From the IMG/VR virus record IMGVR_UViG_3300032225_001576, positions 1 to 30,375 of that record: a stretch of DNA of 30,375 nt; one strand, written 5' to 3'. Within the stretch, counting starts at the first letter, position 1. Every line of letters starts with the position of its first letter. Below the pieces are notes generated by a model, which worked only from the letters and a program-made list of their open reading frames with translations, was not told the DNA's origin and searched no databases. Made by a program: the position numbers and the translations under genes. This document shows, piece by piece, positions 10,973 through 30,375 of this stretch. This stretch comes from a virus (Duplodnaviria > Caudoviricetes).

Positions 10973-11655
10973 ATGACTACGTCGTGGTCATCCCGACGCG
11001 GAACCGCTACCGGCTGTGCCTACGGGCGATCCGGTCGGCGCTGACGCAGACAGTCCCGCCGGCGGAAGTCTTCGTCGTTGACGACGCCTCGGACGATCAG
11101 CGGTATCAGTGGCTTGAGGAGATCGTCGGCAGCCCGCGGCTGACCGTCCTTCGGCGAGCCGTCTCTAGCCGGGACGAAACCGGGGCTGGGTTTGCGGTTG
11201 GCTCGGTGCGAAACGAAGCCATCCGGCACGTGATCAAAATCGGATTCAGCGGTTGGGTAGCGTTCCTCGACGACGACGATGAGTGGATGCCAACGAAGAC
11301 CGCCACGCAGTTCGCGGCAGTCCGCGAGCACGACCCGTATCTGGTGCTCTGCTCCAACGCATTCAACCGCAGCCCCGACGGTGTCGTCTGCGGGTATCAC
11401 CACGAGAAGCATGGCGTGCAGATCACCGACACGACGCGAGACGTGACCGCGATCTGCCGAGTAATGAATCCCGTCATCAACTCGACGGCGATGATCCACA
11501 CGAGGATCGTCGAGCGGCTCGGCGATCAGCAACCGACCGGATTCGGCGAGGACTGGGACTACTGGAAGCGAGCCGGCAGGCTCACCGGAATCATGCGGAT
11601 CGAAGAGCCGCTGGCGTGGTACACGACCGGCAATCCAAAGGAATACACCCTGTGA
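10969..11655 (+). CDS. Glycosyltransferase family 2
   Basis: GTGA overlap start 10969; VVIPTRNR, VVDDASDD, RNEAI, AFLDDDDEW, GEDWDYW. Confidence 0.9.
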   Translation: MNDYVVVIPTRNRYRLCLRAIRSALTQTVPPAEVFVVDDASDDQRYQWLEEIVGSPRLTVLRRAVSSRDETGAGFAVGSVRNEAIRHVIKIGFSGWVAFLDDDDEWMPTKTATQFAAVREHDPYLVLCSNAFNRSPDGVVCGYHHEKHGVQITDTTRDVTAICRVMNPVINSTAMIHTRIVERLGDQQPTGFGEDWDYWKRAGRLTGIMRIEEPLAWYTTGNPKEYTL

Positions 11656-12686
11656 AAATCGGTATCTACGCTCTTGCAAAGAACGAAGCGAAGCACGCAG
11701 AAGCGTGGGCCGCGGCGACCGCCGATGCCGATGTCCGCGTGGTGACCGACACAGGCTCAACCGACGGCACCGTCGAACTGCTCCAGGCGGCCGGCGTGGC
11801 CGTGGCCCGGTCGTTCGTCGTGCCGTGGCGGTGGGATGTGGCGTGGACGCAGGCGCTCTGCAACCTTCCGCCCGATGTCGATGTCGCCTTCCGGGTCGAT
11901 CTCGACGAGCGTCCACAGTCCGGATGGCGAGCGGCGATCGAGGCGGCGTGGGACGGGACGGCCAACAATCTCTTCTACGACTACTGGTGGAGCATGGACG
12001 ACGACGGCCGTCCGCTCCTGCGGTTTCATTGCGATCGGGTCCACGCCCGGTCCGGCTTCGTCTGGCGGCAGGCCACGCACGAGGGGCTCGTCTGCTGGTC
12101 GGGAGACAAGGTCCAGCGCAAGGCCGACGGCCTGGTCGTCGAGCACCACCGCGACAAGGGCAAGGCGCACAAGACCGACCTCGAGCTGCTCAAGGTGGCG
12201 GTCAACGAGTCCCCGGCCGACGCACGGGCGCGGTGGTACTACGCTCGGGAGTTGGACTACGCCGGCATTCCAACGGCGGCAGGCGAGTTTGCCGGCTTCC
12301 TGAAGATGCCCGGTGGATCGCCGACAGAGCGGGCTTACGCTCTGCGGCGGCTGGCGTCGATCACCGGCGACGGGGCATACCTCGACCGGGCCGCGCGGGA
12401 ATCGCCGGGCGAGCCGGACGGGTGGGAACGGCTGGCGCTGGCCGCTCACCACGGCGAGGATTGGCCGCGGTCGCTTGAGTTCGCGGAACGAGCGATTGCC
12501 TCGCCGGTCAGCACGCATGCCACCGATCCGCTGGCAAAGGCGAGGGCGGCAGAGCTTGCGTCAATCGCCCTCTGGCACCTCGGACGCAAGGCGGACGCCC
12601 TGACGCACGCCAGGGCCGCTGCCGCACAATTGCACTGGGACGAGCGGATCGTCGGCAACGCAGCGGAAATGGAGGCGAGTCTATGA
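11652..12686 (+). CDS. Glycosyltransferase family 2 with C-terminal TPR-like repeats
   Basis: GTGA overlap start 11652; IYALAKNE, DTGSTDGT, VDLDE, HEGL; helical C-terminus with ARARWYYARE. Confidence 0.88.
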   Translation: MKIGIYALAKNEAKHAEAWAAATADADVRVVTDTGSTDGTVELLQAAGVAVARSFVVPWRWDVAWTQALCNLPPDVDVAFRVDLDERPQSGWRAAIEAAWDGTANNLFYDYWWSMDDDGRPLLRFHCDRVHARSGFVWRQATHEGLVCWSGDKVQRKADGLVVEHHRDKGKAHKTDLELLKVAVNESPADARARWYYARELDYAGIPTAAGEFAGFLKMPGGSPTERAYALRRLASITGDGAYLDRAARESPGEPDGWERLALAAHHGEDWPRSLEFAERAIASPVSTHATDPLAKARAAELASIALWHLGRKADALTHARAAAAQLHWDERIVGNAAEMEASL

Positions 12687-18802: not shown

Positions 18803-19890
18803 TTCTCGGCGGCGGGTCGAATTGCCAAGGGTGCGGGTGCGGGGGTGCATGCCCGAAATGCACCCGCACATGCCAGAACCCACACAGCGGCTCGGCGTTT
18901 CAAGAGGTGTGGCGTGGATATTCGTTCGGTGCTGTTGATGGCCGTGCCACCGACGGCTACCTGACGTTCTCCGGCGACGAAGACAACCCAGCGTTTATCC
19001 CCAGCGGTGGGCCGTTTCACCAAGAGATCGGCGGCACGTTCTACCTCGACAGTTCTGTGAGTCGATTTCCGTGCAGTCTCGCGGTGTCGTTCTGGCGAAC
19101 GCTCTTTCCGGCAAACGCCAGCACCGATACCGCGCTGTCTTCAAACACCGTGACAATTGCCTGCGTCACTGGTCAGTTCATGACGAACGACGGAGTGTTA
19201 GTCAACCCCGGCGAGACATACACATTCACTGCGGCCGTGCCGCTGGTCGGCATTTTCGCCGGAGATCCGCACAGTTCAACAGGCACCTTCGGCGGTTACG
19301 CCACGTGCGACGGAACGATGGTTGGAATCCGAGCACGGATCGACTGGAGCAGCTCGGAGCGGGTCCACGTGCTGCATGGGATCGTAAGGGAGTGCTACGA
19401 GGAGGGGAATCCGTGTGCGACGTTTTGCTCTGGAAACCCATCTCCCAATGCGCTCTACCTGACGTTGAGCGGGTTTTCAACCTCGTCCGGAACGTTGCAC
19501 GCATCGTATCCGTCTGGAACGTATGTAATTGATCGAGTTCCAGAGTTTTGCAACTCCTACATAACGCCACTTGAGGACTGCAACGGAGTCACGTATTCAT
19601 TCGGACCGTTCATTCCTTTTGTTGGCGTGAATCACAATTGGATGACTGGTTACGTCGGCTCTGAAAACGTCTTTATGGGATTCGGATTTAGGGACTCGCG
19701 TGGGTGTTGCATGAGCTTTCTTTTGCGACTGAACGTGCCATCGTTGCCGTGTGTGTCGTTGACTGGCGTGAGCGGAACTGCTTCATGGTCTGTTCAGCGA
19801 GGGGGGTTTTTTGCTCCGGTTGATGATCCCTGTCGAGTTGAAGAAAACAACGATGCAAGCGGTACTCTTTCGTGGACAATATCATCGTGA
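18799..19890 (+). CDS. Cys-rich putative receptor-binding / tail-tip protein
   Basis: True start ATG18799 (ATGA overlap), MILGGGSNCQGCGCGGACPKCTRTC; visibly lower GC towards 3' end. Confidence 0.6.
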   Translation: MILGGGSNCQGCGCGGACPKCTRTCQNPHSGSAFQEVWRGYSFGAVDGRATDGYLTFSGDEDNPAFIPSGGPFHQEIGGTFYLDSSVSRFPCSLAVSFWRTLFPANASTDTALSSNTVTIACVTGQFMTNDGVLVNPGETYTFTAAVPLVGIFAGDPHSSTGTFGGYATCDGTMVGIRARIDWSSSERVHVLHGIVRECYEEGNPCATFCSGNPSPNALYLTLSGFSTSSGTLHASYPSGTYVIDRVPEFCNSYITPLEDCNGVTYSFGPFIPFVGVNHNWMTGYVGSENVFMGFGFRDSRGCCMSFLLRLNVPSLPCVSLTGVSGTASWSVQRGGFFAPVDDPCRVEENNDASGTLSWTISS

Positions 19891-28452: not shown

Positions 28453-28911
28453 ATGGAATCTGGGATTGGAAGGGCACGAAATCACGACCTAATCGACCTC
28501 TGCTTCGGGCTGGGTCTGTCGGTCGAACGAACGGCTTGGGTATGTGGCGAATCGCTCTCGCGGTGTTGGCACGAGTGGTCGGTGCGAACGGGATTGCCAA
28601 CGCCGGCAGACCCGCCGCCGTCGACGATCAAGCGTCGGGTGCGAGAGGTGAAGCGTGGATGGACGGAGGATCTTGAGATTCTCGCGCGGCACGGAATCAC
28701 GCTGCGGCCGAGTAGCGAGACCGTGAGGTACAGGAACGAGGCGAGACAGGCCGGACAGCGGATCAGGAATCAGCGGAAGACGCAGAAGGCACGGGAGCAG
28801 AGATGCCACTTCGACTCGATCGACGAGAAGGCCAATCCATCACGATCCCCGGAGATCGTGACGCAGATGACGTTGTGGTGCGAGTGCATTCCATCCGAGG
28901 CGACCGCGTGA
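28453..28911 (+). CDS. Hypothetical protein, possible HTH regulator
   Basis: AGAGGAG RBS; GLSVERTAWVCGES HTH-like segment; last 109 nt overlap csrA. Confidence 0.55.
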   Translation: MESGIGRARNHDLIDLCFGLGLSVERTAWVCGESLSRCWHEWSVRTGLPTPADPPPSTIKRRVREVKRGWTEDLEILARHGITLRPSSETVRYRNEARQAGQRIRNQRKTQKAREQRCHFDSIDEKANPSRSPEIVTQMTLWCECIPSEATA

Positions 28912-29018
28912 GATTGGAGGTCGTGGCGAACCACGACCAAGCGATTTACAGGACAGAGCTGTTCAGGCGGCTCGAACAACAGGAGACGACGAATGTCGAA
29001 CAACGTCATGGCCGGTGA
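28803..29018 (+). CDS. csrA: Carbon storage regulator CsrA/RsmA family RNA-binding protein
   Basis: LRLDRREGQSITI...VVVRVHSIRGDRVRLEVVA...IYRTEL matches the CsrA pattern LxLxRxxGESxxI...VRLGxxA...VxRxE; GGGAG RBS. Confidence 0.82.
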   Translation: MPLRLDRREGQSITIPGDRDADDVVVRVHSIRGDRVRLEVVANHDQAIYRTELFRRLEQQETTNVEQRHGR

Positions 29019-29214
29019 TCGTGAGGCCGCCGGGGCAATTGCCGGCATGCAGGAGGTCTACGGCCGCCCGCTGCCGAGCGTGGACGACTGGGTCCAGGGC
29101 GAAAGCGGCGGCAAGCGGTTCTCGGGCCGCGTGATGTCCGCCGAGCCTGGCCGCGTGTGGGTGGAGATCGACGGCGGGTGGATCGTCGTGCCGCCGTCGG
29201 CACTGGATATGTAA
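28993..29214 (+). CDS. Small hypothetical protein (SH3-like beta C-terminus)
   Basis: 73 aa; CAGGAG RBS. Confidence 0.65.
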   Translation: MSNNVMAGDREAAGAIAGMQEVYGRPLPSVDDWVQGESGGKRFSGRVMSAEPGRVWVEIDGGWIVVPPSALDM

Positions 29215-29333
29215 CAGGACGGGCCGCGGCAGGAGGCCAGCGGCAGGGAGCCCGCGGAGCGGGAGTGGCACGGATGACGGGCCGTCGGCGTCGGAGACGC
29301 CGGCGGATCACGGAGGCGAGAGCAGGACATGGA
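29215..29333 (+). ncRNA. Candidate CsrA-binding GGA-hairpin array (CsrB/RsmZ-like RNA or 5' leader)
   Basis: 11 GGA motifs in 119 nt; loops GGC-AGGAG-GCC, GGC-AGGGA-GCC, CCCGC-GGA-GCGGG, CA-CGGA-TG, CGGCGTC-GGA-GACGCCG. Confidence 0.55.
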
Positions 29334-30054
29334 CGGCAAGCCGATCAACGAGCGGTTCGACGTTCGCCGCGTCGGCAAGAAGTGGGCGGACGCCTACATC
29401 TCGCAGCGTCACTACAGCGGGAGTGTGGTGTGGTCATCGCACTCTCATTTTTCGGTAGAGGACGAAGCTGGGCAGGTGTGGGGCGTGTTGCAGTTCGGTC
29501 CTTCGATGAATCCGAAAGCGACTGCGAAGGTCATGGAAGGACTGGAACCGAGAGGGCTTGTCGAGTTGAACCGCATGGTGTTCGAGGAATCACATCCAGC
29601 CAATCTTGTCTCGTGGGCAATCTCGCGGGCGATTCGTCTGGTGTGTCAGGCAAAGCCATACGTCGAAGTGTTCCAGAGTTTTGCGGACGAGCGGTGCGGA
29701 AAGATGGGCGGCGTTTATCAGGCGGCGAACTTTCTGTTCCTCGGAAGTCACCGGACAGAGTTTTACTTTCTCGATGGAGAGTGGTTTCACAGATCGCTTC
29801 TGGGGCGTGGCGTTGTTGACTGTCGCGGCTGGGGATCTGGCCCAAAGGCAGAACGGCTTCGCAACGGGCGTGAAAGGGCCGAGCGCCATGAGTTCACGCA
29901 GTACCGATATGTGTTACCGGTGTCGAAAAGGGCGAGGGAATCACTTACGGCAAGGGCACTTCCATATCCCAAGCCTGGAGTTGTGACTGTCTCGCCAGCC
30001 AGGAGTTTGGCGGTGTCTCGTCCGACTGGGCCGCAAGGCGTGTTGTTCAGTTGA
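29329..30054 (+). CDS. Mom-like GNAT-fold DNA (adenine) modification protein
   Basis: HYSG, GVLQFG, ELNRM, ISRAIR, SFADE..G..GGVYQAANF..LG; visibly lower GC than flanks. Confidence 0.78.
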   Translation: MDGKPINERFDVRRVGKKWADAYISQRHYSGSVVWSSHSHFSVEDEAGQVWGVLQFGPSMNPKATAKVMEGLEPRGLVELNRMVFEESHPANLVSWAISRAIRLVCQAKPYVEVFQSFADERCGKMGGVYQAANFLFLGSHRTEFYFLDGEWFHRSLLGRGVVDCRGWGSGPKAERLRNGRERAERHEFTQYRYVLPVSKRARESLTARALPYPKPGVVTVSPARSLAVSRPTGPQGVLFS

Positions 30055-30084
30055 TGTGTGACGGCTTTCACGGAAGGGGTCGGC

Positions 30085-30375
30085 ATGGCAGCCGAAGGCG
30101 TGATCCATGTGCAACGGACGTTCTGGCGGATGCCGGCGCGTTCCGCCGCGCCGGGGTCACGCAAGGCCGCCGTGCGCCTCTGCCGAGTGAAGGCGGTGCG
30201 GACGAGGCCGGAGACGAAGGTGCAGCGGCGGGTGCGAATTCACCAGGCCGTTCGCCCGCGAGTTGCGGAATGGATTCGGCGAGCACGGAGGGAACAGGCA
30301 CGGCTTACGCACGTGCTCAACGTCTACGCCTCGCCGGTGAAGGCTGGCGGCCGGTCGCTGGCGGGTGATTCGTAC
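30085..30375 (+). CDS. Hypothetical basic protein, truncated by window end
   Basis: GGAAGGGG RBS; MAAEGVIHVQRTFWRMPARS... open to position 30375. Confidence 0.5.
   Translation, partial: MAAEGVIHVQRTFWRMPARSAAPGSRKAAVRLCRVKAVRTRPETKVQRRVRIHQAVRPRVAEWIRRARREQARLTHVLNVYASPVKAGGRSLAGDSY

Follow-up and report, generated by a model that had tools for sequence, protein, structure and literature searches.

A conserved GGA array in the early operon of this temperate phage family looks, on sequence grounds, like a CsrA-controlled intercistronic leader rather than a CsrB-type gene. The reading we favour, with moderate confidence, is that this RNA element may act in cis as a multi-site CsrA operator that represses the next gene; that a CsrA-family protein is its ligand, in whatever role, appears very probable. 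CsrA binding, dimer bridging, repression and the host are what we infer from these comparisons. The window, meaning the whole stretch of DNA analysed, is an entire linear virus record of 30,375 bases (completeness 75%) with terminase, portal, head and tape-measure genes; a beta-1,4-glycosyltransferase-like gene (phrog_13126) lies inside the structural region at 11283-12683. A tyrosine integrase is coded on the minus strand, and beyond it runs a rightward early operon in the order 152-aa gene, csrA, 73-aa gene, GGA stretch, mom and a gene truncated by the end of the record. The phage csrA reported in the earlier note is confirmed by its Pfam score, and the features of this region are as follows.

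28803..29018, + strand: csrA, a divergent phage allele (Pfam PF02599, 42.9 bits against a cut-off of 27)
28993..29214, + strand: gene for a 73-aa protein, predicted to be a small beta-barrel; ends with a stop codon directly against the RNA element
29216..29316, + strand: conserved RNA element, made of three hairpins, each preceded by an A(N)GGA linker, with a further site on the Shine-Dalgarno
29216..29219, + strand: linker site A, AGGA; A(N)GGA in 45/45 distinct copies
29223..29244, + strand: hairpin H1, loop AGGAG in the window; a GGA-containing or ANGAC/ACGAA loop in relatives
29245..29250, + strand: linker site B, ANGGAG; 45/45, N changing at least 12 times on the tree
29251..29263, + strand: hairpin H2, GGA loop; compensatory C-G to A-U and C-G to U-A changes
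29269..29276, + strand: linker site C, CANGGANG, nearest the high-affinity consensus; A(N)GGA in 45/45, N being any of the four bases
29282..29306, + strand: hairpin H3, GGA loop; 5/11 pairs changed on both sides
29309..29316, + strand: site D, ANGGAGG, which overlaps the next gene's Shine-Dalgarno; 33/45 distinct copies
29329..30054, + strand: mom-like DNA modification gene (Pfam Mom, 175.6 bits), inserted 3' of the element
30085..30375, + strand: start of a 167-168 aa gene, cut by the record end; directly 3' of the element in most close relatives

All 11 GGA positions listed previously for 29215-29333 are exact, and nowhere on the + strand of the window do 119 nt contain more than these 11 (mean 2.18). 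Nine per 119 nt are found at 19273-19464 and at 28637-28811, the latter lying in the 3' end of the 152-aa gene, without hairpin architecture and not conserved as such. The expectation of about two was, however, too low: because the stretch is 49% G, shuffling it gives 5.4 (mononucleotide) or 6.3 (dinucleotide), and 11 or more arise with p 0.003 and 0.005, respectively, for a stretch chosen after the fact. Since local composition alone yields five to six, the raw count is modest evidence. The near-consensus site CACGGATG at 29269-29276 was correctly read. Of six supposed ANGGA motifs, four are found (29247, 29272, 29312, 29331), and three more are AGGA (29217, 29232, 29325). The predicted fold has three hairpins and unpaired linkers (z -2.40; reverse strand -1.16); it places the GGAs at 29232, 29256 and 29293 in loops, as had been proposed, but 29247 in an unpaired linker, and pairs the GG of 29262 and 29305 at stem bases. 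Nor is the stretch wholly intergenic, because 29331 lies inside the mom frame (start 29329); 29325 and 29331 both arrived with the mom insertion. The 73-codon gene (28993-29214) separates csrA from the array. The proposed sites at the ribosome-binding sites also fail in the window: that of csrA, ACGGGA, is not A(N)GGA, and that of the gene at 28993 is an ordinary Shine-Dalgarno.

In the element, a module made of A(N)GGA and a hairpin occurs three times in a row, usually closed by the fourth site over the Shine-Dalgarno. The window has one copy (97 bits with the covariance model; the architecture descriptor agrees), and CANGGANG is not enriched genome-wide (27 versus 22), so no phage-wide regulon is seen. 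The start codon of mom itself falls within a CANGGANG motif (29328-29335). Close relatives run the element straight into the gene at 30085, and mom is an insertion in the window's genome, in which a Shine-Dalgarno motif is duplicated at 30069-30076. Other insertions lie just upstream of the element, at 3430-3990 in L004 and 3447-4640 in L017 (another mom, C5-methylase), and the 5' end of the element is duplicated in L017; in all, two different mom genes and one C5 methylase occur at the element's borders. A family search with the 167-aa downstream protein gave none, and in relatives a Sak4-like recombinase gene follows it.

Conservation was examined first from csrA. In a set of 19 viral loci anchored on csrA (68-94% identity), the element stands 3' of csrA in 18, and the nineteenth contig ends just before it. 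Aligned alone it is 81-85% identical, against 69-77% for longer gene-containing stretches. Pattern scans independent of csrA (the metagenome scan covered 120 of about 270 stretches), together with a covariance model, raised the set to 45 distinct copies that are 55-100% alike; this count was made after pattern matches without a full element, judged by eye or model score, had been dropped and the doubtful L273 (34 bits) excluded. Where whole records were searched, there is one copy per genome. Across 27 aligned copies, 98.5% of cells pair, compared with 31-53% in slid controls, and 6/22 pairs change on both sides (0/500 shuffles, a figure inflated by relatedness); as the copies are related, none of these counts is independent. 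G-U pairs are frequent, and on the mRNA strand. The covariation suggested as a check in the earlier note is thus present in related phages, and the element, which might have proved to be coding sequence, is non-coding in the window's clade, since spacings differ by single bases; the upstream frame also stops twice there.

Anchoring on the 73-aa gene (47 loci) exposed a diverged subtype just 5' of the recombinase gene that is traversed by a small membrane-protein frame. Here consensus folding on a sequence-only alignment is poor, indels keep the frame, and the Cys-rich tail of the frame shows no conservation across lineages. The frame runs through the element about 250 nt before the recombinase gene in L305, L314, L327, L328, L333, L338, L376 and L420 and stops at or beside the recombinase start, suggesting translational coupling of the two; in L335 it has neither the tail nor the element. 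A third set, the best 80 of 540 Sak4-like loci, was anchored on the recombinase and not chosen for RNA or csrA. A descriptor of the architecture, composed after loci had been viewed, matches 45 of these 80 on the + strand (counting L401, whose match looks spurious) and none on the - strand, and eight control motifs match 0-2/40 loci where the descriptor matches 20/40. These controls bear on whether the GGA runs are mere chance or the remnant of a protein-coding tail, with Gly-Cys encoded by GGA-UGC. The G-rich composition, which lifts the expected count to five or six, and the open frame with frame-keeping indels in one subtype both speak for such an origin. Yet in that subtype the GGAs are spread over all three reading frames and just 13/195 Gly codons nearby are GGA, overlapping peptides differ among lineages, and the window's clade has the single-base spacing differences and two upstream stops. 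With the covariation and the strand and motif controls, an origin by chance or from coding sequence is largely refuted, and we consider it highly improbable.

A(N)GGA occurs at 135/135 linker sites of the 45 distinct copies, with N varying, against a background of 30% of GGAs in the window; GGA was preset by the search patterns for element-first matches, but the leading A was in none of them. On the tree, N changes at least 12 times at site B and nine at site C, and A(N)GGA is never lost; when A leaves position -2, A stands at -1. With the requirement for A dropped, 34 of the 43 best structural matches keep it at all three sites, versus 0.39 per site. This optional, free N matches the A(N)GGAX rule described for RsmE, and loops at the same positions interchange among the NGGAN, AGGAN and ANGGAN series of the same work (PMC4005645), including AGGAU, AGGAC and AUGGAG. 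Some features fit less well. Single-stranded sites bind more weakly, and the commonest loop, a C-G-closed GGA triloop without a leading A (56/72 at H2), is not among the high-affinity forms in the available text of that source (PMC4005645). Of the 15 distinct csrA-anchored relatives, 12 have no GGA in H1. The high-affinity ANGGAN hexaloop on a stem is absent from the window's copy and present in other lineages.

Could another ligand account for these features? One alternative is that the element is bound by some protein other than CsrA, such as the small beta-barrel encoded next to it, or that it forms single-stranded DNA hairpins near the recombinase genes. Some loops do lack GGA, and in DNA a GGA triloop closed by C-G makes a very stable hairpin. 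The 73-aa protein, which matched no Pfam or PHROG family, has a structure model with four strands (pLDDT 76) and weak likeness to Hfq, Tudor and Sm folds (E 0.04 or worse). This alternative would leave unexplained the free-N A(N)GGA at unpaired sites, the overlap with the Shine-Dalgarno and the enrichment before csrA; the 73-aa neighbour is shortened to 46-49 aa or missing beside many copies; and frequent G-U pairs on the mRNA strand do not fit DNA hairpins. We therefore regard it as very unlikely, and a CsrA-family ligand remains the reading on which the rest of this account is built. As an Hfq-like partner, the neighbour was rejected because its fold matches are weak. Its gene lies directly 3' of three unrelated csrA types (the window's clade, L070 and L302) and also near csrA in L419.

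The window's CsrA keeps the equivalent of Arg44 (R50, invariant), a residue described as essential for RNA binding (PMC7366521), as do 34/34 distinct phage CsrA variants. In the alignment it carries D in place of Thr5 and E in place of Gly33, and it has family-specific changes near the RNA surface, a point against the operator reading; its profile matches RsmE/CsrA structures (E 5e-7 to 2e-5). Proteins of the CsrA/RsmA family form an intertwined homodimer with five strands; the monomer model here (pLDDT 71) has three strands and one helix. Among the 66 recombinase-anchored loci with at least 2 kb upstream, csrA is unusually common and diverse, occurring in 48 with 34 distinct variants (L353-L432), whereas csrA homologues were reported in 30 of 2517 phages, or 1.2% (PMC7366521). 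Both element and csrA are present in 32 of these loci, the element only in 16, csrA only in 16 and neither in two; by lineage (n=26), the split is 12, 5, 8 and 1. The co-occurrence with csrA that the earlier note proposed to test holds for the 32 loci that carry both in the same operon and breaks down in the 16 with the element and no detectable csrA. By Pfam and a local profile over the whole sequence, csrA was not found in three near-complete genomes with the element (100%, 99% and 92% complete), and by Pfam search alone it was not found in four with the read-through subtype (95-100%); conversely, one 100% complete genome has csrA and no match to the element's model. The arrangement is therefore not self-contained, contrary to the earlier note, and because these seven near-complete genomes keep the element, host CsrA likely binds it.

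The position of the element relative to csrA also varies, being after csrA in 12 loci (the window's clade), directly before it in 15 and about 640 nt before it in 6, and many csrA-only loci have a two-hairpin array 5' of csrA. Over the 135 nt that precede the start codons of phage csrA genes, the density of hairpins with ANGGAN loops is 6.2 per kb, compared with 0.29 elsewhere. Control of the csrA ribosome-binding site, as formerly suggested, accordingly looks right outside the window's clade, where 17/31 csrA leaders have such a loop, and finds no counterpart within it (0/5 distinct leaders). In L302 and L329, where the loop is ACGGAC, and in L423 and L424, a terminator-like hairpin with a U-run stands directly 5' of the csrA start.

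The likely host of the phage family is planctomycete bacteria. The element occurs on three short phage-like contigs in two bins, Pirellulales and Planctomycetaceae, which code for 3 and 4 CsrA matches; since it depends on these three contigs, whose binning may be wrong, the host is a matter of inference only. The element model gave one match, to an already found contig, in 121 genomes of the putative host order (30 candidates scored per genome), and GenBank phages gave no match to the window's csrA or to the element. One lake RNA run held relatives, with RNA contigs that cover the element, one joining it to the usual next gene (side 21 nt); because many other genome parts are covered and neither ends nor strand are shown, these are no evidence of its expression.

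How might such an element act? In the operator reading, the ribosome-binding site would be occluded by CsrA dimers, which likely come from the host and to which the phage's own CsrA may add, and the next gene would thus be repressed. Each dimer would bridge a linker site and a loop 9-21 nt away, as spaced in the window's copy; 18 nt is the reported optimum (PMC4894983). The gene under control would differ by lineage: csrA itself in 15 loci, giving negative feedback, the recombinase or the gene preceding it in most others, and mom in the window's genome. As mom stands behind the element in that genome only, its control is not the ancestral job. The level of unbound CsrA in the cell would in this way govern entry into the recombination block, and some CsrA would incidentally be titrated. 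The layout is that of CsrA-repressed leaders, given the nearby start codon, site D and the lack of an own promoter or terminator in the window; the number of sites that overlap the Shine-Dalgarno in CsrA targets ranges from 1 to 6, and translation of csrA is itself repressed by CsrA (PMC3856055). A loose Shine-Dalgarno and start codon follow within 60 nt in 68/72 copies. The 'target' half of the original 'sponge or target' proposal is in this sense upheld, as a conserved, structured, non-coding CsrA-type array for which binding is predicted.

Against a cis operator, the 6-8 sites exceed the need of one repression event. Further, 11 of the 45 copies have no Shine-Dalgarno match straight after H3 and one more has a match without GGA, yet all 45 keep three hairpins; this loss of site D with the hairpins kept, along with the varying downstream gene, fits a sponge as well. 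The element could be mainly a sponge, within an abundant early mRNA or cut out of it, that soaks up host CsrA and frees host or phage mRNAs. Its 6-8 sites in about 100 nt resemble RsmZ in size, the core persists whichever gene comes next and in the seven genomes without detectable csrA, a U-run follows H3 in 10/72 copies, and mRNA leaders are able to titrate CsrA (PMC4894983). Other observations speak against a discrete gene. In the window, a sigma-70 consensus scan gave no promoter-like site before the element and there is no terminator-like site at its end; Rfam gave no match below E 5 in this region, and on seven related loci only tRNA matches and no Csr/Rsm model, so that the 'CsrB-like' gene of the earlier note is not borne out. 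Moreover, the upstream stop codon abuts or overlaps the element, a membrane-protein frame traverses one subtype, a start codon lies just downstream in nearly all copies, and in 15 loci that start is csrA's. We consider a mainly sponge-like role possible but doubtful, and note that target and sponge roles are not mutually exclusive (PMC4894983).

CsrA binding might instead act on transcription, by refolding H3 or uncovering an entry site for Rho, and in this way decide how far transcription runs on into the recombination genes; such a switch seems very improbable. It would suit the location in a lambdoid-type early operon, the U-run after H3 in L423 and L424 and the similar hairpin in L302, but 62/72 copies, the window's included, have no U-run, and the element strand is G-rich. 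Rho sites show a C-rich pattern. CsrA can promote Rho termination, at pgaA (PMC4052769). We return, then, to repression in cis, whose closest precedents are the CsrA/RsmE-repressed leaders of E. coli glgCAP, pgaABCD and csrA and P. fluorescens hcnA (PMC3856055, PMC4005645). These share A(N)GGA loops and linkers, the last over the Shine-Dalgarno, and the element before csrA in some lineages parallels csrA autoregulation (PMC3856055). Unlike them, the element is phage-borne and intercistronic, a fixed three-hairpin module behind which the downstream gene is swapped; its likely host is a planctomycete, and many loops are GGA triloops or lack GGA. The sponges CsrB/CsrC and RsmX/RsmY/RsmZ (PMC7366521, PMC4005645) are alike in having about 100 nt, 6-8 GGA sites and short hairpins, with AGGAN and ANGGAN loops in some element copies, but the element has no Rfam match and no visible promoter or terminator of its own, lies inside an operon and overlaps a ribosome-binding site. 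The C. jejuni flaA and Salmonella fimAICDHF leaders likewise hold a GGA array in mRNA as a possible target and sponge; they are chromosomal 5' leaders, whereas the element is an intercistronic phage module with more sites than the two of flaA (PMC4894983).

In phage Mu, too, mom follows a structured leader that a small RNA-binding protein, Com, recognises; Com activates, whereas CsrA would repress. Mobile csrA alleles are known from phage PTXU04, whose CsrA homologue gp28 on knockdown shrinks plaques (PMC11879866), and from a plasmid (RsmQ, PMC9928087). The available text of PMC7366521 and PMC11879866 names no phage RNA partner for such proteins, while csrA here is diverse and travels with a candidate RNA. 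A literature search, with most subscription papers outside its reach, found no phage-encoded CsrA-binding RNA; nor did a term look-up in a review of phage sRNAs (PMC12197685) or the main text of a 224-motif survey (PMC5737381), whose supplement may hold a similar motif. The 'GGAM' motif was considered as a likeness and dropped, as it proved to be the guanidine-IV riboswitch. The parts are thus familiar, and what is new is their arrangement, in which phages combine a portable module with diverse CsrA proteins of their own. The element offers a short conserved candidate target for phage CsrA, in which natural variants predict which bases matter; it suggests that the host CsrA pool serves temperate phages as the gate to their early recombination genes; and it opens a way to study Csr regulation in Planctomycetota, a phylum with several CsrA copies in the bins analysed.

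Not all loops follow the GGA rule. An ANGAC pentaloop substitutes for the GGA loop in one hairpin per element, at H1 of L002-L020 and at H3 of L370, L374, L389, L392, L393, L400, L266 and L269, and it also occurs in three loci without nearby csrA (L042, L064, L085). Just before csrA, the third hairpin has the loop ANGGCU (once ACGGUU), with all four bases at N, in 13/15 csrA-leader loci, among them L385, L402, L418, L419, L423, L424 and L427, on a stem with a conserved internal loop; this is possibly a recoded CsrA-type site. The recurrent free-N non-GGA loop underlies a bolder and rather unlikely proposal, that the phages run their own Csr circuit in which A(N)GGA sites read host CsrA and the one recoded loop per module, ANGAC in two clades or ANGGCU-type before csrA, is read only by the diverged phage CsrA. 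Host and phage inputs would then together set early lytic-versus-lysogenic commitment after transcription. If true, a protein of the CsrA fold would be reading a code other than GGA, and one phage RNA would combine the signals of host and phage regulators; the recoded loops make altered CsrA specificity directly testable. Finally, short tRNA-like matches lie near the integrase in L377 (1014-1074) and L407 (800-856), possibly attachment-site sequence.
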